Source: an uncultured bacterium
GTDB lineage: Bacteria; Pseudomonadota; Gammaproteobacteria; Burkholderiales; Burkholderiaceae_C
Reading direction: 5' to 3'
Assembly (NCBI GenBank): GCA_903928495.1
Contig: CAIYQZ010000059.1
Coordinates: forward strand, 17,210-81,209
Length of the DNA: 64,000 nucleotides
In this document: piece after piece, positions 2,007 to 51,538 of the stretch
Position numbering within the stretch: position 1 is the first letter of the stretch
How the letters are laid out: every line of letters begins with the position of its first letter
Notes under the pieces: generated by a model
The model's database searches: none
Told to the model about the DNA's origin: nothing
The model's input: the letters and a program-made list of their open reading frames with translations, nothing else
Translations under genes and position numbers: made by a program

Positions 2007-3308
2007 TCAGGATTTGCGCTGCCAGACAGCGGCAAAAAATCCATCGGTGTCGTGACGGTGAGGCCACATGCGAAGGTAGGGCCCACTGCACAGATGGGCC
2101 GCTGCATCGGCCGGTGTGCGCCCGCCCGCAGGTGCCTCAGACGCTTCCTGGCCCAGCAAACGCTCCAGCAGGCCGGGCACCGGCAGCAACTCAAAGTCAG
2201 GGTGCGCGGCAGAGAACGCCTCGGCAACAGCCTCGTTTTCTTCCGGCAACACGCTGCAGGTCGCGTACACCAACCGGCCACCGGCTTTCACCAGCCGCTG
2301 CGCACTGGCCAGGATGGCGGTTTGTTTGGCTTGCAGCTCCAGCACACCTGCGGCGGTTTGGCGCCACTTCAAGTCGGGGTTGCGGCGCAGGGTGCCCAAG
2401 CCCGAGCAGGGCGCGTCCACCAGCACGCGGTCCATCTTGCCCGCCAGGCGTTTGATGCGCTCGTCGCGCTCGTGAGCGATGGCCACCGGGTGCACATTGG
2501 ACAGGCCGCTGCGGGCCAGCCGGGGCTTCAAGGCATCGAGCCGGTGGGCCGACACATCGAACGCGTACAGCCGCCCGGTGTTGCGCATGGTGGCGCCAAT
2601 GGCCAGGGTTTTGCCGCCTGCGCCCGCGCAGAAATCGGCCACCATTTCGCTGCGCTTGGCTTCCAGCAACCAGGCCAGCAGTTGCGAGCCTTCGTCTTGC
2701 ACTTCCAGCTCGCCGCTGATGAATGCGGGCAGCTTGTTGATGGCGGGTTTGCCCTGCAACCGAATGCCCCAGGGCGAATATGGCGTGGGCGCACCCTCCA
2801 TAGCAAACTTTTTAAGCTGATCAAGCGCTACAGGCCGTTTTTGCTTGTAAATGTTCACGCGCAAGTCCAACCCGGCAGGCTCGTTCATGCTGCGGGCCAG
2901 CGCTTCAAACTCGTCGCCCACCTGCGCTTTGAGCGGGGCCACCAACCAGTCGGGCAAGTTGTGGCGGTGGTGGGCCATCAGCTCGTCTGGCCGCACGCGG
3001 GCAGTGCCGTCCAGCCACAAGCATTCCTGCTCGTTCAGGGCAGACTTGATGAAATTGCGGTCGCCATGAAAACCCAAAATGGCCAGGCGGCGCTCGCGCG
3101 GGCCAGAGCCTGATCGGGCCAGATGCTCAAACAGCAGCTTCTGCCGCAACACGGCGTACGTGGTTTCAGCCAGGGTGTTGCGCTCGCGCGGGCCGAGGTT
3201 GCGGTTCTCACGAAAGAAACGGGACACCACGGCAGCGGCCGGGTGGTCAAACTTCAATACCAGTTGCACCAGGGCGGTGCAGGCGTCTAACAGGGCTTTG
3301 GGGTGCAT
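2007..3308 (-). CDS. RsmB/Sun (NOL1/NOP2) family RNA m5C methyltransferase
   Basis: NusB-like N-terminus, SAM motif DFCAGAGGKT, catalytic DAPCSGLGTLRRNPD and ATCS motifs. ATG at 3308 is preferred over the GTG at 3329. Confidence 0.8.
   Translation of the reverse strand: MHPKALLDACTALVQLVLKFDHPAAAVVSRFFRENRNLGPRERNTLAETTYAVLRQKLLFEHLARSGSGPRERRLAILGFHGDRNFIKSALNEQECLWLDGTARVRPDELMAHHRHNLPDWLVAPLKAQVGDEFEALARSMNEPAGLDLRVNIYKQKRPVALDQLKKFAMEGAPTPYSPWGIRLQGKPAINKLPAFISGELEVQDEGSQLLAWLLEAKRSEMVADFCAGAGGKTLAIGATMRNTGRLYAFDVSAHRLDALKPRLARSGLSNVHPVAIAHERDERIKRLAGKMDRVLVDAPCSGLGTLRRNPDLKWRQTAAGVLELQAKQTAILASAQRLVKAGGRLVYATCSVLPEENEAVAEAFSAAHPDFELLPVPGLLERLLGQEASEAPAGGRTPADAAAHLCSGPYLRMWPHRHDTDGFFAAVWQRKS
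2800..2842 (+). repeat. 42-bp motif copy A (inside the rsmB-like CDS)
   Basis: ATAGCAAactttttaagctgATCAAGCGCTACAGGCcgTTTTT. Read on the gene strand it encodes KRPVALDQLKKFAME. Confidence 0.7.
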
Positions 3309-6967: not shown

Positions 6968-6980
6968 GGCAATTTCCTTG

Positions 6981-7021
6981 TAGCTACAAACCAACACACA
7001 GCAAGCGATGCAGGCCAATTT
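6981..7021 (+). repeat. 42-bp motif copy B (intergenic, left flank of the Type III R-M island)
   Basis: TAGCTAcaaaccaacacacAGCAAGCGATGCAGGCcaATTT. It lies 13 nt from the FAH start codon and 19 nt from the res stop. Confidence 0.7.
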
Positions 7022-7039
7022 GGCCTTACATTTCTGCTG

Positions 7040-10030
7040 TCAGAATGGAGTGGGTACTAAGTGATCAATCAGTTGCGCTAACTGCTCGTGGTTGATTTTG
7101 GTCTCGTACTTCACTGGAACGCCTTGTGCCTGCAATGCGGCAAAAAACCGCCGTGCGCTTTGAATCTTCCACCGCTCGCGTTCGGGCACCTCTGCCTCGT
7201 TGTCGTAGCCTTTGGTCTCCACTACTAGGTAAAGCGCCTCGGTGGCACCAGCGCGGCGTATGACATAGCCAAAATCTGGGTTGTACTTGCCAGCCGGTGT
7301 GGGAATGTTGATTTTGGGCAGCTTGGCAAACACCGTAATGCAGTCGTGCTGGGATTCGTCCACGGTGTCGCGCTCAATTTGGCTGTCCACCGGCATCACG
7401 TTTTCAACGTACAGCGATTTGGCTCGCACCACCGCATTGCCTATCGTGTGCGCTTCTTTGCCGCACAAAGCCAGTGGGATGGTTTTCAGCAAGGTGCCGG
7501 TGTTGTCGGTCAACGCCGTTGTCGCCCGGATCTCCCGCAACTCGTAACTCACCCTGTTCACCAGCAATTCGTGCACGCTGCGCAAGATCAGGTCACGCAG
7601 TGTGAGCAACGCCCGGTTCTCGTTGTGCTGAATTTGCGCAAATTTATCGGTGGGCATTCGGGCCAATACGCCGCTGATGGTGTGAATGCTCAGCCGCGTT
7701 TGGTTGGCCAATTCCCGCACAAACCCTTGCAAACTCAACACCGCATGGGGCTTGACCGTGTAGCTGTTTTGCGTGCTTTTGACTTCATGAACGCTTTGCA
7801 CATCGCTGGTGCGCGTGATGCGAACAGACAGCGGGCGGACATCAAAACTTTGCGCAATTCGGTTCAGCACGCTTCGCATGAGCCCTTCCGTATCCAGCTC
7901 GTAACGCAGCACCGCATGGCGGTTCAGGTTTTCCCAAAGGTGGCGAAACTGCTGGTAACTGACCAAGTTGGGTGTGAGGTTGGCTTGGGTTTTGTGCTGC
8001 TTATTCTTGACTTGTCCTGCGCTGTCGTAGTAAGCGTCCAGATACGCCTGCATGTTGGCAGCGTTGTGCGGCTCAATGCCCGGTATGCGCAACATGTTGG
8101 CCAAAATGCTTGCCCGCTTGGCATGGTAGGTGTCCCGGCTCATCACAAGCGTGGCTTGTCCGGTCAAGTCATCCAGCTCCACCACATCCAATGCGGCTAA
8201 AGCGTCCAACACCCGGTTGGCCAGTCGTGTGCTCAAGGCCACGCCAGCTTCGGCCAACAACTTGTCGTCAAACACCCGCGCCACCCGCTTGACGCTGTGC
8301 TGCGCAATTTCGCCCTGAATGGCAGCCACAAAATCACCCTCGCTGGCGGGCACCACCACGGTCAGGTCATTGATTTCGTCAAACGCTGCATCGTCGGCCT
8401 GCACCCGCTCCAGTTGCTGGTTCACTGCCAGGCGCAGGCCACGGCCAATTTGTTGCAACTTGCTGATTTTGGAATTGCTGGGGGCCAGTTTACACAGCGT
8501 GAAAACATTGGGGTTGTCCCAGCCTTCTTGCAGTGCCCACATGGAAAAAATGAACCTCAAATCCGTCTCAAACGACAGCAGTTTTTCCTTCTCTTGCAAG
8601 ATCAACTTGATGGCTTCTTCTTCGCCCTTTTCGCTGTGCGAGCGGGCAAAGTAGCCTTTGTGCACCTTGCCAATGTCAGTTTGGGTGCGCTGCAAATATT
8701 CACGGTAACCCTCATCGAGCTCCGGCTTGCCCAGTGTTAGCGCCAGGTGGTGACGGTAATGGCGCTCAAACGCCTCGCGCACCACCGCAGACTGGGTTTT
8801 GCCCCCCGCAGTTGCAGGCAGGTATTTGCCCACCGCATCAATGAAAAACAGCGTCAGCGACTTGATGCCGCGCTTGAACAGCTCTTCCTCACGCTCAAAG
8901 TGGTTGGCCACAGCACGCTCGATGATGAGCGATTGCACCTCATCGGCCAGCATGCCGTAGGCCGTCGGTTCACCCAGGGGCAGTGCAAAACCGTTGGTGA
9001 ACAGCAGCTCTTTGGCAGTGATTTTTTCCACCACATGGCCACTTAAAAAATCAAGCCCGGTTTGCTGACCCAGGTTGTCTTTGGCTTGCAAGCTCACGCT
9101 CGAGGCTTGCCCAGCGAGCGTTTGGTGGCCCACACGGGCAGTGCGCTCTTTTGCGCTGCCCGTCACCTCATGCAGGCACAGCACCTGCGCGCTGTCATGC
9201 CCCGTGCCCACGGTGTCCACCGTGATGCCCTTGACCAGCCGCTGGCGAAAAGCCTCCAGGCTGTCCAGCGTGTAAACAAGGTTGCGGTACTCGTCTTTTT
9301 TGAAAGTGGCCCCAAACCGGATGGTCAGCAGCGGGTTGAACTTGGCCAAATACTCCTGTACCACCTTGCCCTCAAAACGGTGCGGCTCATCAATGACGAG
9401 CACGGGCCGAATGTGCGCCAGCGCTTCCATGTAGCTTTTGGCCCGGCCAAACAAGTTGGCCTCGACGCCGCGCTTGTTGATGAGCTTGCTGTCCCCGGCA
9501 AACGACTGGTAGGTGGCCACCATCACCGACAACCCCAGGTTGGCAGCACTGATGAAGCCCTTCACCGTTTTGTCTGAGTAATTGACAACGTTGATTTTCT
9601 GGTTGTTGTACTCGCGGGCAAAAAACGCCGCCGTGGTTTGCAGGCTTTTCAGAGTGCCTTGGCGAATGGCGTTGCTGGGCACCAGCACAATGAATTTGGA
9701 CAACCGGTGCTGCTGGTGCAGCTTGTGAATGGTTTCAATGAAGGTGAAGGTTTTGCCCGTGCCCGTTTCCATCAGCACGTCCACATTCAACGCTGGGGTC
9801 AGGCTGCTGGACACTTGCACTGACCCCGTGGTCACGCCATTGGCCTCACGCACACGTGCAATGTTGGCTTTCAGCGTGGCATGCGCTTCGGCCTGCGAAA
9901 ACGTGGGGTTGGCCTGCACATCGGTGGGCGGAGCAAACCGCACATCCGCAAACACATCGGCGATCGAGCGCACCGCTTGCGCTTGGTGCGCCAGGCGGGT
10001 GTATTGGAATTGGGGCAATGCCATGGTCAC
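7040..10030 (-). CDS. res: Type III restriction enzyme, Res subunit
   Basis: 996 aa. SF2 helicase motif I METGTGKTF, motif II VIDEPHRF, and C-terminal PD-(D/E)xK (NPDFGY...VVETKG). It overlaps the mod stop by 4 nt. Confidence 0.9.
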   Translation of the reverse strand: MTMALPQFQYTRLAHQAQAVRSIADVFADVRFAPPTDVQANPTFSQAEAHATLKANIARVREANGVTTGSVQVSSSLTPALNVDVLMETGTGKTFTFIETIHKLHQQHRLSKFIVLVPSNAIRQGTLKSLQTTAAFFAREYNNQKINVVNYSDKTVKGFISAANLGLSVMVATYQSFAGDSKLINKRGVEANLFGRAKSYMEALAHIRPVLVIDEPHRFEGKVVQEYLAKFNPLLTIRFGATFKKDEYRNLVYTLDSLEAFRQRLVKGITVDTVGTGHDSAQVLCLHEVTGSAKERTARVGHQTLAGQASSVSLQAKDNLGQQTGLDFLSGHVVEKITAKELLFTNGFALPLGEPTAYGMLADEVQSLIIERAVANHFEREEELFKRGIKSLTLFFIDAVGKYLPATAGGKTQSAVVREAFERHYRHHLALTLGKPELDEGYREYLQRTQTDIGKVHKGYFARSHSEKGEEEAIKLILQEKEKLLSFETDLRFIFSMWALQEGWDNPNVFTLCKLAPSNSKISKLQQIGRGLRLAVNQQLERVQADDAAFDEINDLTVVVPASEGDFVAAIQGEIAQHSVKRVARVFDDKLLAEAGVALSTRLANRVLDALAALDVVELDDLTGQATLVMSRDTYHAKRASILANMLRIPGIEPHNAANMQAYLDAYYDSAGQVKNKQHKTQANLTPNLVSYQQFRHLWENLNRHAVLRYELDTEGLMRSVLNRIAQSFDVRPLSVRITRTSDVQSVHEVKSTQNSYTVKPHAVLSLQGFVRELANQTRLSIHTISGVLARMPTDKFAQIQHNENRALLTLRDLILRSVHELLVNRVSYELREIRATTALTDNTGTLLKTIPLALCGKEAHTIGNAVVRAKSLYVENVMPVDSQIERDTVDESQHDCITVFAKLPKINIPTPAGKYNPDFGYVIRRAGATEALYLVVETKGYDNEAEVPERERWKIQSARRFFAALQAQGVPVKYETKINHEQLAQLIDHLVPTPF

Positions 10031-12171: not shown

Positions 12172-12184
12172 ATCAATATCCTTG

Positions 12185-12225
12185 TAGCTGTAAACGCTTA
12201 TTCATCAAGCGACAGAGGCCGTTTT
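12185..12225 (+). repeat. 42-bp motif copy C (intergenic, right flank of the Type III R-M island)
   Basis: TAGCTGtaaacgcttattcATCAAGCGACAGAGGCcgTTTT. It lies 13 nt from the mod start codon, in the same orientation as copy B. Inner hairpin CGCTT/AAGCG. Confidence 0.75.
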
Positions 12226-12236
12226 GGCTTAAAAAA

Positions 12237-12821
12237 TCAAGGCAACGCAGCCAGCAAGCGCTCCACCGCACGGGGGTACATGAGGTGCTCCTGCGTCAGC
12301 ACCCTGGCGGCAAGGGTTTGTGCCGTGTCGCCGGGCAGCACGGGCACCACCGCTTGGTCCAGTATCTGGCCGTGGTCCAGCTCCGGGGTGACACGGTGCA
12401 CGGTGGCACCGGCAAACTTGCAACCCTCGTCAATGGCCCGCTGGTGCGTGTTCAACCCGGTGAAGGCGGGCAACAGGCTGGGGTGGATGTTGACCAGCCG
12501 CCCGTCGTAATGCGCCACAAACCCTGGTGTGAGGATGCGCATGAACCCAGCCAGCACCACCAGCGCGGGGTCAAAACCATCGATTTCAGCCATCAGCGCC
12601 GCGTCAAACGCCTCGCGACTGGCAAAGGCTTTGTGGTCGACCACAGCAGTGGGAAGGCCATGGCTGCGGGCAAAGGCCAGACCGGCGGCATCGGCCTTGT
12701 TGCTCAGCACTGCGGCCACGCGGGCACCCACGCGTTGTGCCCATTGGCGTTGCTCGGCGGCGCGCACAAGGGCTTGCATGTTGGAGCCGCCGCCAGAGAT
12801 CAAAATGACGATGTTTTTCAT
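12237..12821 (-). CDS. purN: phosphoribosylglycinamide formyltransferase
   Basis: [18 protein letters not shown]..., HPSLLP and ATVHRV motifs. 194 aa. Confidence 0.95.
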
Positions 12822-14851: not shown

Positions 14852-15979
14852 ATGGACTTCGATTTCTCCGACGACCAGGCGCAACTGGCCGATGCCGTGT
14901 CCCGCTGGGTGGACAAGGCCTACACCTTCGAGCGCCGCCGCGCCACCACCGCAGCGGGCGGTTTTGACCGCGCTGCCTACAACGAGCTGGCCGAACTGGG
15001 CCTGACCGGCCTGACCGTGCCTGAAGCACACGGCGGTTTGGGCATGGGGCCGGTCGACAGCATGGTGGTCATGCAGGCACTGGGCCAGGGTCTGGTACTC
15101 GAACCCCTGGCGCAAACCCTGGCCGCCAGCACCGTGCTGGCCCACACCGCTCCGGACGACGTGCAGGCGCAGTGGCTGCCGCGCATCGCCAGCGGCGAAG
15201 CGCTGGTGGTGCTGGCGCATCAGGAGCGCAAGGCCCGTTACCAATTGGGAATTTGTGAAGCAAAAGCGGCTCCAGCGCTTGATGGGTGGACAGTTTCAGC
15301 TATCAAACACATGGTTCCCGTGGGAGACCAGGCAGATGCCTGGCTGGTGCCCGCACGCATTGCAGACGCCTCAGGCGACCGCATGGCGTTGTTTCTGGTC
15401 GAGCGCACAGCCCCCGGTGTGATGGCCACAGGCCACGCCACGCAAGACGGTGGCCGTGCGGCCAATGTCACGCTCACCGATGCCCCGGCAACCCTCGTCA
15501 CCCGCAATGGCCTGGCCGCGCTGGAGCTGGCGGCTGATGTTTCCCTGGCAGCCCTGTGCGCGGAGGCCGTCGGCGTGATGGATAAAACCGTCGCGCTCAC
15601 CGTGGAGTACATGAACACCCGCAAACAGTTTGGTGTGGTCATTGCCAGCTTCCAGGCCCTGCGACACCGCGTGGCCGACATGAAGATGCAGTTGGAGCTT
15701 GCCCGCAGCATGAGCTACTACGCCACGCTCAAGATGGGTGCACCCGCCGCCGAGCGCAGCCTGGCGCTGTCACGCGCCAAGGTCCAACTGGGCCACAGCA
15801 TGCGTTTTGTGGGCCAACAGGCGGTGCAGTTGCATGGCGGCATGGGCGTGACCGATGAAATGCTGGTCAGCCACTGTTTCAAGCGCCTCACACAAATGGA
15901 AATGACCCTGGGTGACACACTGCACCACCTCGGTGTGGTGAGCGACAACATGCAGGAAACCGCAGGCGTCTTCGCCTGA
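14852..15979 (+). CDS. acyl-CoA dehydrogenase family protein (partner subunit type)
   Basis: MDFDFSDDQAQLADAV..., ACAD C-terminal helices (QLHGGMGVTDE). It is adjacent to and co-directional with the previous ACAD. Confidence 0.88.
   Translation: MDFDFSDDQAQLADAVSRWVDKAYTFERRRATTAAGGFDRAAYNELAELGLTGLTVPEAHGGLGMGPVDSMVVMQALGQGLVLEPLAQTLAASTVLAHTAPDDVQAQWLPRIASGEALVVLAHQERKARYQLGICEAKAAPALDGWTVSAIKHMVPVGDQADAWLVPARIADASGDRMALFLVERTAPGVMATGHATQDGGRAANVTLTDAPATLVTRNGLAALELAADVSLAALCAEAVGVMDKTVALTVEYMNTRKQFGVVIASFQALRHRVADMKMQLELARSMSYYATLKMGAPAAERSLALSRAKVQLGHSMRFVGQQAVQLHGGMGVTDEMLVSHCFKRLTQMEMTLGDTLHHLGVVSDNMQETAGVFA
15262..15304 (-). repeat. 42-bp motif copy I (inside the second ACAD CDS)
   Basis: The reverse strand reads GATAGCTGaaactgtccacccATCAAGCGCTGGAGCCgcTTTT. 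The gene strand encodes EAKAAPALDGWTVSAIK. Confidence 0.75.
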
Positions 15980-20088: not shown

Positions 20089-20217
20089 CGCACACACCCG
20101 GCTGTGTGGCGTGGTCGCCGCGCAGCCACCCTCCGCTTCGCGGCACTGCTCTTTTGGGGCTGTGCGCACCCCGCCCGCCGGGCCCACCGCATTCACGCCC
20201 TCACACACGCTCGCCCA

Positions 20218-23130
20218 ATGTCTGACACAAAACCCGCCGCTGCAGCCACAGCCACCGACTACCGCGCCACCCTGAACCTGCCCGACACCCCCTTCCCGAT
20301 GCGCGGCGACCTGCCCAAGCGGGAGCCGGGCTGGGTGAAGGCCTGGGAAGACAACGGCCTGTACAACAAGCTGCGTGAAGCCCGCAAAGGTGCGCCCAAG
20401 TTCATCCTGCACGACGGCCCGCCCTACGCCAACGGCCAGATCCACATCGGCCACGCGGTGAACAAGGTGTTGAAAGACATGATCGTCAAGGCCCGCCAGT
20501 TGAAGGGCATGGACGCGCAGTACATCCCCGGCTGGGACTGCCACGGCCTGCCAATTGAAAACGCCATTGAAAAACTGCACGGCCGCAACCTGAGCCGTGA
20601 CGACATGCAGGCCAAAGCCCGCGCCTTTGCCACCGAGCAGATCGCGCAGCAAATGGCCGACTTCAAGCGCCTGGGGGTGCTGGGCCAGTGGGACCGCCCC
20701 TACCGCACCATGGACTTTGCGACGGAGGCCAACGAAATCCGCGCCTTCAAGTGTGTGATGGAGCGCGGTTTTGTGTACCGGGGTCTGAAGCCCGTTTACT
20801 GGTGCTTTGACTGCGGCAGCTCGCTGGCCGAGTTCGAAATCGAGTACCAGGACAAAAAGAGCCAGACACTGGACGTGGCCTTTCCGTGCGCCGAGCCCGA
20901 CAAACTGGCCGCCGCGTTCGGCCTGCATGGCCTGACCAAAGAAGCCTTTGTGGTCATCTGGACCACCACCGCGTGGACGATTCCAGCCAACCAGGCGCTC
21001 AACCTCAACCCGGAATTGATCTACGCACTGGTGGACACACCCAAGGGGATGCTGATCCTGGCGGAAACGCTGGTGGAAAAGTGCCTGGCCCGCTTTGGGT
21101 TGGAAGGCACCATCATTGCGCACGCCAAGGGCGCCAAGCTGGAAAAAATCAACTTCCGCCACCCGCTGGCGCATGTCGATGCGGGCTACAACCGCCTGTC
21201 GCCCGTGTTTTTGGCCGACTACGCCACCGCCGATGACGGCACCGGCATCGTGCACTCGTCGCCCGCCTATGGTGTGGACGACTTCAACAGCTGCGTGGCC
21301 AACGGCTTTGCGTACGACGACATCTTGAACCCCGTGCAAGGCAACGGCCAGTACGAGGCCGAGCTGCCACTGTTCGGTGGCATGAACATCTGGAAGGCCT
21401 GCCCCGTCATCATCGACACGCTGCGCGACAACGGCCGCCTGATGGCCACAGAAGTCATCACCCACAGCTACCCGCACTGCTGGCGCCACAAAACCCCGGT
21501 GATCTACCGCGCGGCCGCCCAGTGGTTTGTGCGCATGGACGAAGGCGACGGCATTTTCACCACCGACAAAGCGCCACAGACCCTGCGCCAGATGGCCCTG
21601 GCTGCCATTGAAGAGACAGGCTTCTTCCCCGAAAACGGCAAAGGCCGCCTGCGCGACATGATTGCCAACCGGCCCGACTGGTGCATCAGCCGTCAACGCA
21701 GCTGGGGCGTGCCCCTGCCGTTTTTGCTGCATGTGGACACGGCCGAGCCGCACCCGCGCACGCCCGAGATTGTGGACCTGGCCGCGCAAGTGGTGGAACA
21801 GGGCGGCATCGAGGCCTGGAGCAAACTCACGGTTACAAACATTTTGAGCCTTATCGACGATGCGGCGGACGCTTCAAGCTATACAAAAAGCACCGACATC
21901 TTGGAAGTTTGGTTCGACTCCGGCACCACCCACACCACGGTGCTGAAGGGAAGCCACGGCCAGAAACGCGCTGATGGCAGCCTGGCCCACGCGCACGACG
22001 AGGGCTGCGAGGCCGATCTGTACCTGGAAGGCCACGACCAGCACCGCGGCTGGTTCCACAGCTCGCTGTTGACTGCCTGTGCCATGTATGGGCGCGCCCC
22101 TTACAAGGGCCTGCTGACCCACGGTTTCACCGTGGACGGCCAGGGCCGCAAGATGAGCAAAAGCGTGGGCAACGTGGTGGCCCCGCAAACCATCAGCGAA
22201 AAAATGGGCGCGGAAATCATCCGCCTGTGGTGCGCCAGCACCGACTATTCAGGTGATTTGGGCATTGACGACAAGATTCTGGCCCGCGTGGTGGATGCCT
22301 ACCGCCGCATACGCAACACGCTGCGCTTTTTGCTGGCCAATATCAGCGACTTCAACCCCGCCACCGACACCGTGGTCGATGCCGACCTGCTGGAAATCGA
22401 CCGCTACGCGCTGGCCCGTGCGGCGCAGTTGCAAACCGACATCCTGGCGCACTACGAGAAGTACGAATTCCACCCCGTGGTGGCCAAGCTGCAGCTGTAT
22501 TGCAGCGAAGACCTGGGCGGCTTCTACCTCGACGTGCTGAAAGACCGGCTGTACACCACGGCTCCCAACTCCAAAGCCCGCCGCAGCGCGCAAACGGCGC
22601 TGTACCGCATCACCCACGCATTTGTGCGCTGGATGGCACCGTTCCTGAGTTTCACCGCTGAAGAGGCCTGGGGCTTCATGGGCCAGAAGGATGCGCCGCA
22701 CAGCGAATCCATCTTCATGGAAACCTACACCGTGTGGCCCGCACCCGACGCCGCCAGCGAAGCGCTGCTGGCCAAGTGGCAGCGCATCCGCGAAATCCGC
22801 GACTTGGTGAACAAGGAAATCGAGGCCGTGCGCACCACCGGCGCCGTGGGTTCGTCGCTGCAGGCGAACGTGACGCTGACCGTGCCGAGCGAAGACCACG
22901 CTGTGCTGGCCAGCCTGGGTGATGACCTGAAGTTTGTGACCATCACATCTGCTGTGACATTGATAGCTGGAAACTCAATACAGATAAGCGTTGAAGCCTC
23001 AAAAAGCCATAAATGCGAGCGCTGCTGGCACTACCGTGACGATGTGGGCCATGATGCTGACCACCTCGGCCTGTGCGGGCGGTGCACCAGCAACCTGCAC
23101 GGCACGGGCGAAGTGCGGGAACACGCCTGA
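20218..23130 (+). CDS. ileS: isoleucine--tRNA ligase
   Basis: MSDTKP...[22 protein letters not shown]-type motif [16 protein letters not shown], and C-terminal CERCWHY zinc motif. ATG at 20218. Confidence 0.97.
21842..21893 (-). repeat. 42-bp motif copy H (divergent, inside ileS)
   Basis: The reverse strand reads TATAGCTTgaagcg...cgtcGATAAGGCTcAAAAT. It is a locally AT-rich patch encoding [19 protein letters not shown], and is the weakest member of the family. Confidence 0.45.
22963..23005 (+). repeat. 42-bp motif copy G (inside ileS, just before the C-terminal zinc motif)
   Basis: ATAGCTGgaaactcaatacAGATAAGCGTTGAAGCCtcAAAAA. It encodes [15 protein letters not shown]. Confidence 0.7.
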
Positions 23131-32289: not shown

Positions 32290-33282
32290 TCAGGGCAGCA
32301 AAATGGTGCAGCCGGTGGTCTGGCGGGCTTCCAGGCTGCGGTGTGCAGCCTGCACATCGGCCAGGGCAAAGCGCTGGTCGATGCGGATGTTGACCGCCCC
32401 GCTCAACACCACGGCAAACAACTCGTCGGCCATGGCCTGGGTGCGCTCGCGGCTGGTGATGTGGCTGAACAGCGTTTGCCGGGTGACATACAGAGAGCCT
32501 TTGGGGCCCAACATGCCGGGCGCAAACGGCGGCACGGGGCCGCTGGCATTGCCAAAGCTGGCCATCAGGCCAAAGGGCTGCAGGCAATCCAGGCTTTTGT
32601 CCCAGGTGTCTTTGCCCACGCTGTCGTACACCACCTTCACACCCTGGCCACCGGTGATGTCTTTCACGCGTGCCGCAAAGTCTTCGGTTTTGTAGTTGAT
32701 AGCAAACTTTGCACCATGGGCAAGCGCCAGGGCACATTTTTCATCGGAACCCGCTGTGCCAATGAGTTGAAGACCCAGCGCCTTGGCCCATTGGCAGGCA
32801 ATCAGGCCTACGCCACCTGCAGATGCATGGAACAGCACAAAGTCGCCGGCCTGCAAGCCACCCTGGGGCAGCGTGCGTTTGAGCAGATACTGGGCCGTCA
32901 AGCCCTTCAACATCATGGCGGCTCCGGTCTCGAACGAAATGCCATCGGGCAGCTTGCACACGTTCATGGCAGGCATCACCCGGCGCTGGCTGTAGCTGCC
33001 GGGCGGGTTGGCGGCGTAGGCCACGCGGTCGCCCACGGCCAGGTGGGTCACGCCATCGCCCACCGCTTCCACCACGCCAGAGCCTTCCATGCCCAGTTGC
33101 AGGGGCATGGACAGGGGGTACAGGCCGCTGCGCTGGTACACGTCGATGTAGTTCAGGCCAATGGCTTTGTGGGCAATCCGCACCTGGCCAGGGCCAGGTT
33201 GGCCCACAGGAACGGTCACCAGCGCCATTTGCTCGGGGCCACCGGCCTGGCTGATCTGGATGGCTAGGGTTGTGTCGGTCAT
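32290..33282 (-). CDS. qor: NADPH:quinone oxidoreductase (zeta-crystallin/MDR family)
   Basis: MTDTTLAIQISQAGGPEQM...GLNYIDVYQRSGLYP... and AAGGVGL nucleotide-binding motif. ATG at 33282. The 644-aa ORF in the track is read-through. Confidence 0.9.
   Translation of the reverse strand: MTDTTLAIQISQAGGPEQMALVTVPVGQPGPGQVRIAHKAIGLNYIDVYQRSGLYPLSMPLQLGMEGSGVVEAVGDGVTHLAVGDRVAYAANPPGSYSQRRVMPAMNVCKLPDGISFETGAAMMLKGLTAQYLLKRTLPQGGLQAGDFVLFHASAGGVGLIACQWAKALGLQLIGTAGSDEKCALALAHGAKFAINYKTEDFAARVKDITGGQGVKVVYDSVGKDTWDKSLDCLQPFGLMASFGNASGPVPPFAPGMLGPKGSLYVTRQTLFSHITSRERTQAMADELFAVVLSGAVNIRIDQRFALADVQAAHRSLEARQTTGCTILLP
32699..32741 (+). repeat. 42-bp motif copy Y (inside qor)
   Basis: ATAGCAAactttgcaccatgGGCAAGCGCCAGGGCacaTTTTT. 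It shares the 12-mer ATAGCAAACTTT and identical spacing with copy A. It encodes EKCALALAHGAKFAIN. Confidence 0.65.
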
Positions 33283-35183: not shown

Positions 35184-36017
35184 TCAGAAGGTTCCCGCGA
35201 ACGCCCCGCCATCGGCCAGCACGTTCTGCCCGGTGATGTAACCCGCCTGCACGCTGCACAGAAACGCGCAGATTTGCCCGAACTCATGCGGGGTGCCAAA
35301 GCGCTGCGCCGGAATTTGAGCGATTTGCGCAGCGCGCACCTCGTCCACCGTTTTGCCCTGCCTCTGGGCAGCCCCGGCTATTGTTGTTTTGATGCGGTCG
35401 GTGTCGAACTTGCCCGGCAGCAGGTTGTTCAGCGTCACGCCTTTTGCCGCCAGCGTGGGGTTGCGGGCCACGCCCGCCACAAAACCGGTCAGGCCGCTGC
35501 GTGCGCCGTTGGAGAGGCCCAGGATGTCGATGGGCGCTTTCACCGCGCTGCTGGTGATGTTGACGATGCGACCGAAGCCGCGCGCCGCCATGCCGTCCAC
35601 CGTGGCTTTGATGAGTTCGATGGGGGTGAGCATGTTGGCGTCGATGGCCTTCAGCCAGGCGTCGCGCTCCCAGTCGCGGAAGTCGCCGGGGGGTGGGCCA
35701 CCGGCGTTGGTCACCACGATGTCAAACGCGGTGCCGGGGCCACCGGCCACGCCCAGTGCGGCGGCGCGGCCCTCGGGCGAGGTGATGTCGGCGGCCACGG
35801 CCAGCACCACATTCTTCAAGACTTTTTGGCCTCCAGCGCTTGACTGCATTGACAACTCAGCTCTGATATTGTCCGCCGCAGCGTGCAGCACCTCGGCCCC
35901 ACGGGCCACCATCACCACGTTCACACCCTCGGCGGCCAGCGCCTGTGCACAGCCCAGACCCAACCCTTTGCTGGCGCCGCAGACCAGCGCCCATTTGCCT
36001 TGCAAACCCAAATCCAT
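35184..36017 (-). CDS. SDR family oxidoreductase
   Basis: GASKGLG cofactor motif, the NITS...A catalytic region, and PGKFDT. Confidence 0.88.
   Translation of the reverse strand: MDLGLQGKWALVCGASKGLGLGCAQALAAEGVNVVMVARGAEVLHAAADNIRAELSMQSSAGGQKVLKNVVLAVAADITSPEGRAAALGVAGGPGTAFDIVVTNAGGPPPGDFRDWERDAWLKAIDANMLTPIELIKATVDGMAARGFGRIVNITSSAVKAPIDILGLSNGARSGLTGFVAGVARNPTLAAKGVTLNNLLPGKFDTDRIKTTIAGAAQRQGKTVDEVRAAQIAQIPAQRFGTPHEFGQICAFLCSVQAGYITGQNVLADGGAFAGTF
35823..35865 (-). repeat. 42-bp motif copy X (inside the SDR CDS)
   Basis: The reverse strand reads CAGAGCTGagttgtcaatgcAGTCAAGCGCTGGAGGCcaAAAAA. The gene strand encodes RAELSMQSSAGGQK, codon-for-codon alignable with copy G in ileS. Confidence 0.75.
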
Positions 36018-36060: not shown

Positions 36061-36990
36061 TCAGGCCTTGGCCCGGCTGACCCAGAACACGCCGCCCATC
36101 ACCAGCACCGTGCCCACCAGCACCCAACCGTTGAAGGGCTCGCCCAGCAGCAACACGCCCATGGTGATGGTGGACATGGGCCCGATCATGCCGGTCTGGG
36201 CGGTCAGGCCAGAGCCGATGCGCTCAATGGCCATCATCACCATCAGGACAGGTGCGGCGGTACAGGCCACGGCGTTGAGCACCGACAGCCACACCACCTC
36301 GGGCGCGACCAGCGCCGCCGACAGCGGGCGCAGCCACACAAACTGCCCGATGCACAGCACACAGGCCACCGTGGTGGCCAGGCCCACCAGGCGCAATGAG
36401 CCCAGCCGCTTGACCATTTCGCCGCTGTACAGCAGGTACACGGCATAACTCACTGCGCTGCCAAACACCAGGGCGCCGCCCAGCAGGGTGCCACTCGCGT
36501 CAAAGTTCACCTCGTGCCCAAACACCACCAACACACCGGCATAACTCAGCGCCATCGCTCCGGCTTGCCGGCCGGTGATGCGCCGCCCATACAGCGCCCA
36601 CCCCAGCACCAACACCAGCGTGGGGTTGAGGTACAGAATGAGCCGCTCCAGGCTGGCACTGATGTACTGCAGGCCCCAAAAGTCCAGAAAACTGGCGAGG
36701 TAGTAGCCACTGAAACCCAGGCCCAGCACGCCCAGCCAGTCTCGGCGGCTCAAGGCGGGTTGCCCCCGGCTGGCCCACCAGGCCATGGCCAGGAACATGG
36801 GCAGGGCAAACAGCATGCGGTACATCAGCAGGGTGACGGCATCCACTCCGTGCCGGAACGCCAGCTTGACGATGATGGCCTTGCCGCTGAACGCGATGGA
36901 ACCAGCGGCAGCCAGGGTCAGGCCCAGCAGTACTTTTTTTCTAGCTGCCAGTGCAATACCATCAAGCGCTGGAGGCACTTTTCTATCCAA
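36061..36990 (-). CDS. EamA/DMT family transporter
   Basis: Ten TM helices. The only available starts (TTG at 36990, GTG at 36978) lie at or inside motif copy F. Confidence 0.8.
   Translation of the reverse strand: MDRKVPPALDGIALAARKKVLLGLTLAAAGSIAFSGKAIIVKLAFRHGVDAVTLLMYRMLFALPMFLAMAWWASRGQPALSRRDWLGVLGLGFSGYYLASFLDFWGLQYISASLERLILYLNPTLVLVLGWALYGRRITGRQAGAMALSYAGVLVVFGHEVNFDASGTLLGGALVFGSAVSYAVYLLYSGEMVKRLGSLRLVGLATTVACVLCIGQFVWLRPLSAALVAPEVVWLSVLNAVACTAAPVLMVMMAIERIGSGLTAQTGMIGPMSTITMGVLLLGEPFNGWVLVGTVLVMGGVFWVSRAKA
36942..36982 (+). repeat. 42-bp motif copy F (forms the first ~15 codons of the EamA gene)
   Basis: TAGCTGccagtgcaataccATCAAGCGCTGGAGGCacTTTT. A 24-nt stretch (36959-36982) is identical to 46618-46641. 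It encodes DRKVPPALDGIALAARK. Confidence 0.85.
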
Positions 36991-37014
36991 AACAGTTACC
37001 CCACTGGTGCACGG

Positions 37015-45444: not shown

Positions 45445-46314
45445 TCAGCCTCCTCTTGCAATCGGGTAGATGTCCTGGACAGCGGCCCAATGTTCACGGA
45501 GTAAGCAGCCAAACTCCGCATGTGCATTGACGGCTGCTGCGTGGCTTGGTACCAAAGCATTCAACACAGTGGACAGGCGCAACGGTGGTTCGTCGTGCAT
45601 ATGCACGGTCCACTTTCCGTTCCCTCTGACCAAGTGCGCTTGGCTCCACACCCCTTGTTCAAGGTACGGAGGGATTCGGTGCATGAACCGATCTCTGTAT
45701 GAAAACACCGGGTCCAAGTCTCGGTTTTGGGGATAGATGGTTTCAATGGCTGCTCTCAATCGGGGGGTCGCCTCCCAACGCTCGACCGCGCTCCACATTT
45801 CATTCCATTTGGGCGCCTGATGGCTGTCTCTGGAACGTGATGAGAGCTCCGACCCGGGCGGTGACAACAACACATCCATCTCGTGGTGGGTTCTCCAAAC
45901 GGCAAATGCGAAGCGGCTTTTCAGCGCCATGGGCAGATTCAATGCATGGTGTGCCAATGGCAACACCACTTCCGCCAAAAGAGCCAACCGCGCTTCTGCA
46001 CTTTCGGCACCGTCCAAAGATGCCTGCCACGCCTTCAATCTGTCCAGGCAATAACCGAAGTCATTGACCTCGTTGGTCAACCGGTACCAGTGGGTCTCTG
46101 ACGTTTCCCCCCACGCATCGGCCATCGTGTCCATGGTCAGGTGACGTGAGACCGGTGCGTGAAAGGGCACTTGTGGACGCCTGACCTCTGCGGGTAGTTG
46201 ATGCAGCGCGCTGCGATACCGCGCCTGCCCAGCGCCAAGCGATGCATCCCATTTGGGGTCTGCGGGGTCAACTTCACCAAGCAAATGCTTTGCTTGTTCA
46301 GTCTCGGAGCTCAT
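45445..46314 (-). CDS. hypothetical protein (289 aa) with R-x4-H motif
   Basis: The ATG overlaps the stop of the MmeI-like gene (ATGA at 46311-46314). The region is AT-richer than its neighbours. RDRFMH lies at aa 207-212 (nt 45679-45696). No family recognised. Confidence 0.7.
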   Translation of the reverse strand: MSSETEQAKHLLGEVDPADPKWDASLGAGQARYRSALHQLPAEVRRPQVPFHAPVSRHLTMDTMADAWGETSETHWYRLTNEVNDFGYCLDRLKAWQASLDGAESAEARLALLAEVVLPLAHHALNLPMALKSRFAFAVWRTHHEMDVLLSPPGSELSSRSRDSHQAPKWNEMWSAVERWEATPRLRAAIETIYPQNRDLDPVFSYRDRFMHRIPPYLEQGVWSQAHLVRGNGKWTVHMHDEPPLRLSTVLNALVPSHAAAVNAHAEFGCLLREHWAAVQDIYPIARGG

Positions 46315-49175
46315 GGTGCAGGTGCTGCATTGAGGGTTTTCTTAACCTTACCTGCCTTCCCCACCGCCAGCAAACTGTTCAGCCGCTGGTACAGCTCAAA
46401 CAAAAACGCCACGCGCTCGGCGTCGTTTTTGTAGGCCTTTTTTCCGCCGCAGGCTTCGTAGGCTTTGTCCACGGCGGTGTCGAGTTTTTGGTGGGCTTTG
46501 AGCAGCGCCGGGGGCATGGTGAGCGGGTCGTACAGGTCGGCCAGGCTGCTGGTGGGGAACTGGGCGCGGGCGTCGAGCACGGCTTGGGCGGCGGTTTCTA
46601 TAGCCACTTGCGCTTTTCCATCAAGCGCTGGAGGCACTTTTGACACTGAATTTTCTGTTGGGTTGCAGAAGGGCCAGGGGAAGTTGTTGTAGACGATGGC
46701 GGCGGAGTAGCGGTAATCGCTTTTCAGCCGCCCGCAGGTGGTGCGCACCCAAGCGTTGTGCATGGTGCTAGAAAGGACGCCGAAGTGGAACAGGGTGGCG
46801 TCGGGCAGCACGTAAAGCTGATTTGACGCAATAACTTCTGGGGGCAAAAAGCCTATTGGGATGAAGTTACGACGCTCAGAGCTCACCGTGGGAATGGCGA
46901 GGTAATGGGTACTGGGTTGTCGAATTTCTGCAAACAATGTAGGGGTGTTAGCCAGCTTCTTGGTGGTTTCGCGGTCGCGGGATGCCCGCCACTTTCGAAC
47001 CGCTTCAATCCGTGATAACGCCACTGGCGACTGTCTCAGGCTGGTTGGTGATGCATCTCGAAACCAAAGGCACCAGCGCGGCGTGCTGTGCAACAGTTCT
47101 TCACCTCCCATGAATGGCCGAACAAATTCGGCTATCCGTGAATCTTTGGATTCCAGAGAGTCCTTTGTGCTCTTATCCAACGTGTAGTGGCCATCGTCGA
47201 GCGCGAAACTGCCGTACACCAGCCCCGGGACACCGTTGGTGGGCCTTTTTACAGAGGCAAGTAGCACATCGGGTGCATCCACCAAATAGGGGTTGATGCG
47301 CTGCGCAGGCACGGCGTGGGGCTGGCCCTTGATGTCGTCGTACTCGTGAATGATCTTGCCCGCCCGGTCGTTCAGCCCGAAGCCGACGATGACGCAGTGC
47401 ACGGCGGCTTTGCCCTTAGCTTCGTTGCTCCAGTTGAAGGTGCGGTGGGCAAAGTGAATTTTCACGCCCTGTGCCAGCAGCCAGCTCCACAACACGCCCA
47501 CCTGTTCACCTTGCGTGATGCTGTTGGTGGACACAAACGCGCACTCTGGCAGCACCGCACCTGCCGTACCTGATTCTTGGGCGAGCGCCATGTAGCGCGC
47601 GGCTTTGACGTACCACGCCGACACAAAGTCGAGCACACCAGCGCCCTGGATGTGGCCCATCACCTGCTCAAAGTCGGCTTTTTGTGCGGGGGACTGTTCT
47701 CTTTTGCCCAAAAACGGCGGGTTGCCCAGGACAAAACTGCACCGTTCCGGGGCCAGCATGTCGGCCCAGTCCAGCGTGAGGGCGTTTCCGTGCGCAATGT
47801 GGGGGCTGGTGCGCAAGGGGATGCGTGCGAAATACAGGCCAAACTCTTCGCTGACCTGCAGGTTCATTTGGTGGTCCATCAACCACAGGGCCACTTGGGC
47901 AATTTGGGCTGGGAATTCTTCAATTTCTATGCCGAAAAACTGGTCCACGTTCACGCCAATCAGGCTGTGCACGTCCACGCTGCGTTGGCCGGCGTTGCCG
48001 CTGAGTTCGTGGCTGGCGCGCAGCACGGCCAGTTCCAGCAGGCGAAGTTCCCGGTAGGCAATGACCAGAAAGTTGCCACAGCCGCAGGCGGGGTCAAAAA
48101 ACGTGAGGTGGCGCAGCTTTTGGTGAAACTCAAACAGGCGGTTGCGGTTGCCTTTGACCTTGCCAAACTCGGCCCACAGCGCGTCCAGAAACAGGGGCTT
48201 GATGAGTTTTTGGATGTTTTCTTCGCTGGTGTAGTGCGCGCCCAGGTTGCGGCGGGCCTCGGCGTTCATGATGCTTTGGAACAGGCTGCCAAAGATGGCG
48301 GGGCTGATGGCCGACCAGTCCAGCGCGCAGGCATCGAGCAGGGCCTCGCGCATGGGGGCATTGAAGTCGGCCAGGGGCAGGCTTTCTTCAAACAGCTTGC
48401 CGTTGATGTAGGGGAAGCTGGCCAGTTGCGCGTCCAGGTGGGTGCTGCGCTTGGGCTCTGCGGTGTTGAGCACCTGAAACAGTTGGGCCAGGCGGGCACC
48501 CAGGTCCGAGCCGTCGGGCTCGGTGCGCTCCTCCACAAAGGCGCGAAAGGCCTGTGCGGGCTGAAAAATGCCGGTGTCGTCGGCAAACAGACAAAACAGC
48601 AGGCGCACCAGCAGCACCTCCAGCGGGTGCTCGGTGTAGCCGCTGGCTTTAAGTGCGTCGTGCAGCTTGCCCAAAGCGGCAGCGGCTTTGACGTTGACGG
48701 GGTCTTGGGCGCGAATAACCTGGGCCTTGTAGCCGGCCAGAAAGCCGAACAGGCGCACGTGTTTGTGCAGGTCTTTCAGCGCAAATTCCAGCGTTTCGTC
48801 GGGGCGTTCTGCGGTGGCCAGGCGGTGCACGCGCATGCGGGCAAAGTCGCACACCACAATGAGTTGGGGCAAGTCGCGCTCGGCGAGACCGGGGAAGTAG
48901 CCCAGGGCTTGGTCAAACGCGGCGTCCAGGTTTTTGCCCAGCGACTTTTGCTCGACCAGCAGCATGCCAGGCCAGAACAGATCAACAAAGCCTTGACCGC
49001 CACCGTGTTTTTTGACTGCCAGCTCGAAGGTCGCCACGCGTTTGTCGGTGATGCCGAAGATTTCGAAAAACGCCAGCCAAAAGGGTTTGGCATGGCTGTT
49101 TTCGTCCGTTGCATCGGCCCAGGTGCGACTGAAGCTCAGTGCACGGCCCTTTATCTCGTTCCAGCTCAAAGGCAT
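46311..49175 (-). CDS. MmeI-family Type IIL restriction-modification enzyme (fused endonuclease, methyltransferase and specificity domains)
   Basis: N-terminus MPLSWNEIKGRALSFSRTWADATDENSHAKPFW... closely parallels MmeI. Nuclease motif D65-X9-E75-X-K77 (VDLFWPGMLLVEQK), SAM motif FFDPACGCGNFL, and catalytic GNPPFLG. 954 aa. Confidence 0.9.
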   Translation of the reverse strand: MPLSWNEIKGRALSFSRTWADATDENSHAKPFWLAFFEIFGITDKRVATFELAVKKHGGGQGFVDLFWPGMLLVEQKSLGKNLDAAFDQALGYFPGLAERDLPQLIVVCDFARMRVHRLATAERPDETLEFALKDLHKHVRLFGFLAGYKAQVIRAQDPVNVKAAAALGKLHDALKASGYTEHPLEVLLVRLLFCLFADDTGIFQPAQAFRAFVEERTEPDGSDLGARLAQLFQVLNTAEPKRSTHLDAQLASFPYINGKLFEESLPLADFNAPMREALLDACALDWSAISPAIFGSLFQSIMNAEARRNLGAHYTSEENIQKLIKPLFLDALWAEFGKVKGNRNRLFEFHQKLRHLTFFDPACGCGNFLVIAYRELRLLELAVLRASHELSGNAGQRSVDVHSLIGVNVDQFFGIEIEEFPAQIAQVALWLMDHQMNLQVSEEFGLYFARIPLRTSPHIAHGNALTLDWADMLAPERCSFVLGNPPFLGKREQSPAQKADFEQVMGHIQGAGVLDFVSAWYVKAARYMALAQESGTAGAVLPECAFVSTNSITQGEQVGVLWSWLLAQGVKIHFAHRTFNWSNEAKGKAAVHCVIVGFGLNDRAGKIIHEYDDIKGQPHAVPAQRINPYLVDAPDVLLASVKRPTNGVPGLVYGSFALDDGHYTLDKSTKDSLESKDSRIAEFVRPFMGGEELLHSTPRWCLWFRDASPTSLRQSPVALSRIEAVRKWRASRDRETTKKLANTPTLFAEIRQPSTHYLAIPTVSSERRNFIPIGFLPPEVIASNQLYVLPDATLFHFGVLSSTMHNAWVRTTCGRLKSDYRYSAAIVYNNFPWPFCNPTENSVSKVPPALDGKAQVAIETAAQAVLDARAQFPTSSLADLYDPLTMPPALLKAHQKLDTAVDKAYEACGGKKAYKNDAERVAFLFELYQRLNSLLAVGKAGKVKKTLNAAPAP
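46600..46641 (+). repeat. 42-bp motif copy E (inside the MmeI-like CDS, C-terminal region)
   Basis: ATAGCCacttgcgcttttccATCAAGCGCTGGAGGCacTTTT with inner hairpin GCGCTT/AAGCGC. It encodes SKVPPALDGKAQVAIE. Confidence 0.85.
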
Positions 49176-49192
49176 GGCGCACTCCCTGACTT

Positions 49193-49220: not shown

Positions 49221-49236
49221 TCGACCCAAAGCAAAT
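49196..49236 (+). repeat. 42-bp motif copy D (intergenic, upstream of the MmeI-like gene)
   Basis: ATAGCTAcaaagtattgccAATCAATCGACCCAAAGCaa. The 5' half is well conserved and the 3' half degenerate. Confidence 0.55.
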
Positions 49237-51007: not shown

Positions 51008-51538
51008 TCAACCGGCCAGTGCCGGGCCCAAAGCCGCCCACCAGGCGGCTTTTTTTCGTTCCAGGCTCCAGCTGGCGTTGGCTGGACTGCTGGAGGGCAG
51101 CTTGACCACCGGCACCCCCAACGCCAAAGTGTGCCGGTGGTGGCGAAAACTGGTCGCCCCGTTGTGAGCCACCAGCGCCAGTTGCGGACACACCGCCCGA
51201 AAGGCCGAAAAATCATTCACCGTGGCGTTGCGAATGTCAGCGTCCAGGCTGCCCTGGCGCTCGCAACTGGCGTACACGTCCCACAGGCCCACGCCGTGAT
51301 CCTGCAGCCACCGGCAGCGCTTAGCGTAGTCAGAACCATAGCTGACTTTCTTTTCCAGACAAGCGATAGGGGCTGAAAACATCTCAAATACGTGGGCCAT
51401 GAGGGGCCAGAAGTGGTTGCGCGGGTGGCCGTAGTACTGCTGGGCTGCCAAGGACGCCGCGCCGGGAAAACTGCCCAGCACCAGCACGCGGGTGCGCACA
51501 TCCACCAGGGGCGGCAGCCCCACCAGGCGGGCCGGCAT
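51008..51538 (-). CDS. DNA-deoxyinosine glycosylase (UDG family 6-like)
   Basis: VLVLGSFPGAASLAAQQYYGHPRNHFW is the family signature. ATG at 51538. The longer 312-aa ORF is read-through. Confidence 0.75.
   Translation of the reverse strand: MPARLVGLPPLVDVRTRVLVLGSFPGAASLAAQQYYGHPRNHFWPLMAHVFEMFSAPIACLEKKVSYGSDYAKRCRWLQDHGVGLWDVYASCERQGSLDADIRNATVNDFSAFRAVCPQLALVAHNGATSFRHHRHTLALGVPVVKLPSSSPANASWSLERKKAAWWAALGPALAG
51031..51057 (+). terminator. rho-independent terminator of the mscS-family gene, embedded in the 3' end of the convergent glycosylase CDS
   Basis: AAGCCGCC-cacca-GGCGGCTT followed by TTTTTT, 40 nt after the mscS stop. Confidence 0.6.
51338..51379 (+). repeat. 42-bp motif copy Z (inside the glycosylase CDS)
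   Basis: ATAGCTGactttcttttccAGACAAGCGATAGGGGCtgAAAA. It encodes FSAPIACLEKKVSYG. Confidence 0.65.

Follow-up and report, generated by a model that had tools for sequence, protein, structure and literature searches.

A dispersed imperfect-palindrome repeat of Comamonadaceae occupies native, length-conserved coding positions in qor, ileS and an acyl-CoA dehydrogenase gene

Copies of a dispersed repeat in three genes

The window analyzed here is a 64,000-nucleotide stretch of DNA from an uncultured bacterium (GenBank assembly GCA_903928495.1, contig CAIYQZ010000059.1, positions 17,210 to 81,209 of the forward strand). Within three of its genes, qor, ileS and the second acyl-CoA dehydrogenase (ACAD) gene, a short stretch of coding sequence is a true member of a dispersed, imperfectly palindromic repeat of Comamonadaceae, about 45-70 nt in length. 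Gene assignments rest on Pfam-supported open reading frames (ORFs), used in place of noisy calling by third-position G+C content (GC3) only. The three genes and their repeat copies are:

32290..33282, minus strand: qor, NADPH:quinone oxidoreductase (Pfam ADH_N and ADH_zinc_N)
32687..32758, plus strand: repeat copy in qor, core 32699-32741 (Qor residues ~181-195)
14852..15979, plus strand: second ACAD gene
15247..15314, minus strand: repeat copy in the second ACAD gene, core 15262-15304 (residues ~137-152)
20215..23130, plus strand: ileS, isoleucyl-tRNA synthetase
22950..23023, plus strand: repeat copy in ileS, core 22963-23005 (residues 917-931, between the anticodon-binding domain and the C-terminal zinc finger)

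A search of the window with the pattern TAGC-N(16-20)-AAGCG returned nine matches, and in all nine the spacer was exactly 18 nt long; for TAGC-N18-AAGCG, an estimate from base composition predicts about 0.5 occurrences in the window. The mean ungapped identity of the nine 43-mers was 0.56, compared with 0.27 for random 43-mers (99.9th percentile, 0.49). The family consensus reads TTGCTAT-N5-GATAGCTGC..GCGC-loop-AAGCGCTGGAGGCC-AATTTG. Its boxes are TAGC and AAGCG(C/G)T at the fixed 18-nt spacing, which is present in the qor, ACAD and ileS copies alike, together with GGAGGC and a T-run. Conserved positions span more than 43 nt and fall into two to three boxes around a variable, partly self-complementary spacer, and there is no short (~9-12 bp) invariant core. 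Copies are single and dispersed, at a density of about one per 5-7 kb of the window, and are A/T-rich compared with the host genome.

A first-pass annotation of this DNA had pointed to high nucleotide similarity between copies in unrelated genes, and both of its examples were borne out. The 12-mer ATAGCAAACTTT occurs in the window only at positions 2800 (in an rsmB/F-like gene) and 32699 (in qor), with equal spacing to AAGCGC, and two copies described as about two-thirds alike, that of the ACAD gene and the one at 36942, are 72-74% identical. The intergenic copy at 36930-36999 and the copy in an MmeI-family gene share 79% identity over 43-47 nt. The annotation named qor, ACAD and ileS as genes carrying the motif; all three stand, but the list was incomplete, as three more copies lie within Pfam-supported ORFs:

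2788..2858, plus strand: repeat copy in an rsmB/F-like rRNA methyltransferase gene (rsmB; 2007-3329, minus strand)
46589..46657, plus strand: repeat copy in an MmeI-family restriction-modification gene (46311-49175, minus strand), within the linker that joins the target recognition domain (TRD) to the C-terminal domain
35815..35866, minus strand: repeat copy in an SDR gene (35184-36017, minus strand), in a length-variable loop

Thus six copies (rsmB, ACAD, ileS, qor, SDR and MmeI), about 6 of the 11 tabulated, are genic, and the extragenic location typical of repetitive extragenic palindromic (REP) sequences does not apply to the family.

The genic copies occupy native positions of unchanged length

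A scan of species-representative genomes for isoleucyl-tRNA synthetase (IleRS) yielded 80 syntenic Comamonadaceae loci, which were also used for the ACAD and qor orthologues (labels of the form L0xx denote loci or contigs of relatives, L001-L080 being these syntenic loci). No gap was found at the motif site of ileS in any of the 80 aligned orthologues, although four distant ones have 2-3 additional residues nearby. The qor site was free of gaps in 58 orthologues and 120 further homologues, and the rsmB site showed no indel against 19 orthologues. At the ACAD site, 48 of 51 orthologues are of equal length, with three outliers of +3, -1 and -4 aa. Outgroup genera without any copies of the family have the same length at the sites. 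The peptides themselves are also shared: the ileS peptide SA(I/V)xLxAGxxLx(I/V)xVx(P/A)SxxxKC is recognizable with and without the motif, and the qor peptide KCALALAHGA is identical in one motif-free orthologue. The motif-encoded peptides of qor, ACAD, ileS and rsmB are therefore positionally homologous to those of motif-free orthologues. This agrees with the first-pass annotation, which held that the motif peptides of qor, ACAD and ileS fill native positions of about equal length; replacement rather than insertion holds for rsmB in addition.

A classical in-frame insertion of a miniature mobile element, be it a miniature inverted-repeat transposable element (MITE), a REP doublet (REPIN) or an element like the Rickettsia palindromic elements (RPE), would add about 14 or more codons. 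The alignment check that the annotation had proposed revealed no clean 40-45-nt insertion at any of its three sites, and the indel-free alignments refute insertion for qor, ACAD and ileS. The length of the segment is constant in qor, ACAD, ileS and rsmB against 19-178 homologues each, outgroups included, the encoded peptides are native, and copies sit at identical codons across several genera. What speaks for insertion comes from the remaining two genes and from the shape of the element, in which a (G/A)TAGC 5' box lies beside a palindrome as in REP sequences. In the MmeI family, 18 of 120 homologues are exactly 11 codons shorter in the TRD-C linker, a clean 33-nt indel that coincides with the central hairpin, and the SDR loop of the window is 8-13 codons longer than that of most orthologues, in the presence of the motif. 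However, the short MmeI forms keep both flanks of the element (their DNA, AATAGC-GTG-GCGCTGG-GCCTCAG, is the element without its central hairpin), so that deletion of the hairpin fits equally well. The short forms are polyphyletic in Comamonadaceae, dispersed among long forms 81-87% identical to them, which suggests recurrent precise loss or gain of the hairpin. Since the MmeI and SDR copies carry extra codons, the family is not strictly length-neutral everywhere: it is length-neutral in constrained segments and not in free linkers. As an account of the genic copies as a whole, insertion is scarcely tenable.

Codon choice at the sites is unusual and directed toward the repeat

Two models of the repeat were built without the three genes, one from the window only and one trained on 72 copies from relatives; in the latter, the copy upstream of ribF gave excess weight to its 5' and 3' ends. 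The scores were:

ACAD copy: window-only model, 24.0 bits (E 1.5e-6); relatives' model, 24.9 bits
qor copy: window-only model, 16.3 bits (E 4e-4); relatives' model, 11.6 bits
ileS copy: window-only model, 6.6 bits (E 0.56); relatives' model, 15.1 bits

Synonymous codons were then shuffled within each of 41 window genes (n = 150), keeping protein and codon usage. None of the 150 shuffles reached the observed score of qor, ileS or ACAD, the shuffle maxima being 7.0 to 7.6 bits with the relatives' model and 6.0 to 8.9 bits with the window-only model. Hence, the motif matches rest on specific and unusual codon choices.

The qor copy was followed most closely. On the sense strand of the gene it reads AAA TGT GCC CTG GCG CTT GCC CAT GGT GCA AAG TTT GCT ATC and includes the rare codons CTT (4% of Leu) and GCT (8% of Ala). 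Species-representative genomes contain no qor copy, their best score being 4.4 bits. A protein search for closer qor relatives gave a graded series, in which six of six contigs at 80-90% qor nucleotide identity have the copy. The qor copy is thus common to six closer relatives and younger than the ileS and ACAD copies. Within the motif, synonymous differences number 0-4 in 13-18 codons, compared with 26-44% in the rest of the gene. Among codon columns that encode the same amino acid in all seven sequences, 8 of 13 show no variation inside the motif, as opposed to 53 of 225 elsewhere (Fisher p = 0.005), and the motif is the top 18-codon window of the gene for codon invariance. Of 20 positions strongly conserved in the family, the outgroup consensus agrees at 7 (single outgroups, mean 8.4, maximum 12) and the ingroup at 13-16. 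Relative to the outgroups, seven changes at these positions are toward the family and none away from it; examples of the substitutions are CAG to CTT, ACC to GCT and TTC to TTT. The nearest outgroups and the motif-bearing consensus are still identical at 33-34 of 43 nt, among them the nucleotides between the boxes. The qor copy therefore looks like native sequence edited by about ten substitutions and not like a foreign block, and, judged by these comparisons, it is at qor that in-situ recoding is demonstrated best.

In ileS, GC3 of the window gene drops to 0.37 in the motif codons from 0.83 gene-wide, and the copy uses ATA three times (3% of Ile), GGA (4% of Gly), GTT (5% of Val) and TCA (7%). 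The same dip is found in the other motif-bearing genomes (GC3 0.26-0.67 in motif codons, 0.77-0.94 gene-wide); in motif-free genomes the same codons have a GC3 mostly of 0.8-1.0 (range 0.52-1.0). A model trained outside these genes gives 20-40 bits at the ileS site in some 20 species from the genera Polaromonas, Rhodoferax, Acidovorax, Simplicispira and Giesbergeria, and 15-27 bits at the ACAD site in about 12 species; at the latter site the motif occupies identical codons in Acidovorax, Polaromonas, Rhodoferax, Giesbergeria and Extensimonas. Both the ileS and the ACAD copy are thus ancient and common to at least five genera at the same codons, and the copy in the window ileS is a partly eroded version of the higher-scoring copy of its relatives. 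In weakly scoring orthologues such as L001 and L015 the 5' and 3' parts are kept and the core is gone.

Two ileS genes of relatives differ in other ways. That of Rhodoferax antarcticus (L052 11314-11378) holds a second copy of 23.8 bits, about 1.3 kb upstream of the conserved 3' copy. In L090 (15945-18911; IleRS of 989 aa) a differing sequence, WDEVEAAPNDFDFDIRIDAVNVSVHP, stands just before the KCERC zinc finger, and the copy has for this reason apparently been replaced or lost.

The observations on codon choice bear on the simplest alternative, that conserved peptides (KCALAL..FAINY, SAIxLIAG) are by coincidence encoded by DNA resembling the motif. In qor and ileS the native peptides are in part pre-adapted, with qor outgroups matching up to 12 of the 20 conserved positions; for the 11.6 bits of qor with the broad model the expectation is 0.13 in 52 kb of shuffled coding sequence, and the ileS copy reaches only 6.6 bits with the window-only model. 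Yet the synonymous shuffles never attained the observed scores, rare codons are used at the box positions, synonymous sites of qor are conserved, the same sites reach 20-40 bits in other genera, and the GC3 dip is confined to genomes that hold further copies of the family. Chance resemblance is hardly credible in the light of these results.

Genic copies follow the dialect of their genome and are lost together

The core of the repeat occurs in two dialects: the window and the Acidovorax group have AAGCGCT, whereas Polaromonas and Rhodoferax have AAGGGCT. Genic copies carry the majority non-genic variant of their own genome in 27 of 27 scorable cases (Fisher p = 2e-7, uncorrected for phylogeny). 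The sister species L012 and L024 show the same dialect difference at ileS, at ACAD and at the copy downstream of purN, and in ileS the dialect alters the protein (Ser versus Arg). In the window lineage, rsmB has changed from PEVQKEL to PVALDQL, yielding the exact core AGCGCTTGAT as in the ACAD and MmeI copies. Presence of the motif in ileS and ACAD is coordinated, goes with the count of further copies in the locus and is patchily distributed among close relatives: L075 (Acidovorax radicis N35) has it and L080 does not, and likewise L039 and L023. A tree of the relatives was built from a distance matrix. Parsimony favors an early origin of the family, which entire genomes then lost repeatedly.

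Concerted variants could also arise if some 40-70 nt had been copied from a template into an already similar gene site, with critical residues then restored by selection. The donor could be another copy of the element or an allele from another strain, with or without the motif, and the transfer might proceed by gene conversion, by template switching or by annealing of single-stranded element DNA at the fork. The dialect match of all 27 genic copies would follow, as would the rsmB change that created a core found in ACAD and MmeI, the rsmB/qor 12-mer that extends 7 nt into an otherwise variable spacer, the divergence between sister pairs with and without the motif, which is concentrated in the motif codons, and the extra nucleotides of the MmeI and SDR copies. 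The retention of 33-34 of 43 native nucleotides in the qor copy, inter-box stretch included, argues against such replacement, and so do the residue-by-residue homology of the ileS and ACAD peptides and the apparently mosaic, gradual decay of weak orthologues such as L001 and L015. Moreover, identity between copies is only about 55-60%, less than RecA-type conversion would tolerate. We regard short-patch replacement as unlikely overall. The first-pass annotation had offered convergence in place and short-patch conversion side by side; the former is supported for qor by the seven changes toward the family and none away, and the latter is still a live rival.

Orientation and structure of the element

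Read manually, the relatives' consensus leaves a single frame without stop codons in each orientation, and it is these frames that the genic copies all use: TTG ATA GCT in ileS and SDR, GCG CTT G.. ... GCT AT. in ACAD, rsmB, qor and MmeI. Orientation relative to transcription is conserved, forward in ileS and SDR and reverse in ACAD, rsmB, qor and MmeI. That both orientations are conserved argues for a signal at the DNA level over a strand-specific RNA signal. In the putative stem the AAGGGCT dialect gives a G-G mismatch and no compensated pair. Counting of hairpins in fixed columns gave modest support for hairpins 2 and 3, and hence we make no strong structural claim.

It is conceivable that each genic copy is a locally selected mRNA hairpin of its own operon, serving, for instance, its processing or stability, or providing an internal signal upstream of lspA. 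Of the genic copies, 93% have a paired hairpin-1 stem; in ileS, the copy precedes the stop codon and lspA by about 110 nt, and intergenic copies stand between same-direction operon genes, where their GCTA(C/T) end adjoins the Shine-Dalgarno sequence of the next gene. However, both orientations with respect to transcription occur, each conserved, the ACAD, qor and rsmB copies are mid-gene, the AAGGGCT dialect brings the mismatch mentioned above in place of a compensated pair, and Rfam gave no match. Coordinated genome-wide loss also fits a shared reader better than many independent local functions. Separate RNA functions are improbable as the common cause, and a DNA-level signal with a shared reader is favored over them because both orientations are conserved and the G-dialect is mismatched.

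Two conventional signals were considered and rejected. A promoter, TTGATG-N16-TATCAA on the reverse strand, would have a -10 hexamer that is missing its last T and runs into the Shine-Dalgarno sequence of the following gene. An intrinsic terminator would require a T-run, which follows the hairpins in neither orientation.

Recoding in place as the preferred explanation

Taken together, we consider in-place recoding under a genome-wide, sequence-specific force at the DNA level the best explanation of the genic copies, with a probability of roughly 60%. Native codons would be rewritten in place, so that rare A/T-ending codons and a few tolerated residue changes spell the repeat. A force acting on the DNA sequence would create and hold copies wherever the protein tolerates them, probably in large part through point changes at permissive positions. 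It could be selection for a site read by a putative lineage-specific trans-acting factor or, alternatively, a biased-fixation drive like that proposed for DNA uptake sequences. Were the force lost, copies at all sites would be expected to decay together. The data suggest a genome-wide DNA signal that is kept against protein-coding pressure.

Several observations weigh against recoding in place. Synonymous constraint in ileS is a non-significant trend in close relatives (~9% vs 24%), and distant motif-bearing ileS pairs show none (0.38 vs 0.36). The MmeI and SDR copies bring 8-13 extra codons. Between L039 and L023, divergence is concentrated in the motif codons (d3 0.80 vs 0.29, d12 0.28 vs 0.04), and such divergence between relatives with and without the motif fits block replacement as well as fast directional decay. 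The dialect test is phylogenetically non-independent and reflects about 2-3 switches. Pairing outside the invariant GCTAT/ATAGC stem is modest (60%, compared with 27-48% in shifted controls) and is attained by 22 of 1000 shuffles. The element is far longer and more structured than known driven or selected words, such as the 9-12 bp uptake sequences and the 8-bp HIP1, and no trans-acting factor was identified in the 64-kb window, which is too small to seek one.

More tentatively, and with odds somewhat against it, the Comamonadaceae may carry an undescribed genome-wide DNA signaling system: a long (45-70 nt) palindromic word with a putative co-evolving, lineage-specific reader, actively written into essential genes such as ileS at odds with codon bias and the optimal protein, with concerted dialects, and erased across the genome upon loss of the reader. 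An uptake receptor, a chromosome-organizing protein or a repair protein may be the reader of the palindromic word. If true, such a system would parallel uptake sequences or HIP1, with a word that is long and structured.

Repeats of this size are usually deemed mobile and extragenic; here, one is overlaid on the reading frames of ileS, ACAD, rsmB and qor with their length unchanged, and it has been retained in housekeeping genes over genus-scale times at a cost in rare codons and residue changes. Nature here offers a clear example of overlapping codes, and analyses of codon usage and dN/dS in these genomes consequently carry a hidden DNA-level constraint. A new lineage becomes available in which to test whether iterated motifs are due to selection or to molecular drive, and since sisters with and without the motif (L075/L080, L039/L023) and the dialect pair L012/L024 exist, the reader or driver should be discoverable by comparative genomics.

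Comparison with known repeats

Rfam 15 gave no gathering-score match in the window (best copies had chance-level matches, E > 1), and a full-text literature search for sequence strings of the element returned unrelated primer matches only. By analogy, the behavior of the element appears closest to that of uptake sequences in coding regions and of HIP1.

Uptake sequences show lineage dialects and stable orthologous positions. In coding regions they favor poorly conserved residues, occur in some reading frames more than in others, and alter the composition of peptides (Findlay & Redfield 2009, PMC2817400); their use of frames correlates with preferred codons (PMC2817400). Like the uptake signal sequences (USS) of Pasteurellaceae and the DNA uptake sequences (DUS) of Neisseriaceae, which are iterated motifs in genes without indels, the genic copies described here arise in place, without indels and in permissive frames and positions, and the element shares with USS and DUS the use of one frame per orientation, placement in variable segments, dialects and orthologous conservation. 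It differs in being a three-part palindrome of 45-70 nt, whereas the uptake sequences have 9-12 bp cores, and in forcing rare codons, whereas those go with preferred ones.

The cyanobacterial palindrome HIP1 (GCGATCGC) is hyper-abundant and shows conservation both inside ORFs and between them (Xu, Lawrence & Durand 2018, PMC5861425); it has been read as maintained by selection, possibly for chromosome or nucleoid structure (PMC5861425). HIP1 is an 8-bp word with more than one copy per gene; the element is 5-8 times longer, has flanking hairpins and occurs about once per 5-7 kb. RPE are palindromic repeats inside protein-coding genes that are still functional (review, PMC10969869). RPE insertions add tens of residues, whereas the element adds none in four genes, where the peptide is native; only the MmeI and SDR linkers, with their 8-13 extra codons, resemble RPE.

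REP sequences, bacterial interspersed mosaic elements (BIME) and REPIN, with their REP-associated tyrosine transposases (RAYT), are numerous in gamma-proteobacterial genomes, persist vertically and form lineage-specific classes (PMC3116915, PMC3337134). The element is similar to REP and REPIN in its short imperfect palindrome beside a GTAG-like 5' box. REP and REPIN are, however, described as extragenic and spread by transposition, in contrast to the ~6 of 11 genic copies tabulated here. The beta-proteobacterial repeat element BRE was ruled out: it is ~90 bp long, has 69% G+C and is often tandem, forming a variable-number tandem repeat (VNTR; Hot et al. 2011, PMC3110155), while the element is A/T-rich relative to the genome, occurs as single dispersed copies and has another sequence.

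Other copies and their genomic neighborhood

Outside of genes, the window holds the following copies:

6975..7040, plus strand: intergenic copy, between the type III res stop codon and the start codon of the FAA-hydrolase gene
12175..12241, plus strand: intergenic copy, between the stop codon of purN and that at which type III mod starts
36930..36999, plus strand: intergenic copy, between the stop codon of ggt and that at which eamA starts
51326..51398, plus strand: copy in the convergent spacer between mscS-like and tatD genes, kept in the relative L081

Weak and possibly decayed copies (7-18 bits) were seen at 38052-38106, 10213-10259 and 56053-56115, which lie inside ggt, inside type III mod and at an ORF junction near 56.1 kb.

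The most widely conserved copy among the relatives lies in the divergent spacer upstream of ribF (at ~8750-8900 of the L001-L080 loci; L086 20428-20573) and is kept even by Variovorax, from which the others have disappeared. From the window lineage it has been lost. The corresponding site, at ~18.9-19.1 kb, is beside an HNH endonuclease gene in this lineage and shows the residue TTGTCA...TATATT.

About 9 kb (window 3317-12241) are inserted between purN and rsmB, which are neighbors in relatives. The insert contains:

10027-12171: type III mod
7040-10030: type III res
6113-6967: FAA hydrolase
5332-6081: unassigned ORF
3317-4996: prfC

The copies at 12175-12241 and 6975-7040 flank the type III mod-res pair, and the first also marks the purN end of the insert. 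They are direct repeats with 72% identity over 67 nt, the Shine-Dalgarno sequence and start codon of the next gene included. In the 6975-7040 copy the GTAGCTAC end adjoins the Shine-Dalgarno sequence and ATG of the FAA-hydrolase gene. More generally, a GTAGCTA(T/C) end adjoins the Shine-Dalgarno sequence and ATG of mmeI, type III mod and FAA hydrolase (49190-49240, 12171-12190 and 6967-6990; L081 3379-3450), and all three gene starts are junctions of apparently acquired DNA. The elements may be hot spots of recombination or integration, or may supply a context for translation initiation. The neighborhood of eamA and the SDR gene is a hot spot for gene gain: in the closest relative, L086, HipA-like toxin modules (143-1731 and 6381-8044) are inserted near this region, and the window is without them.

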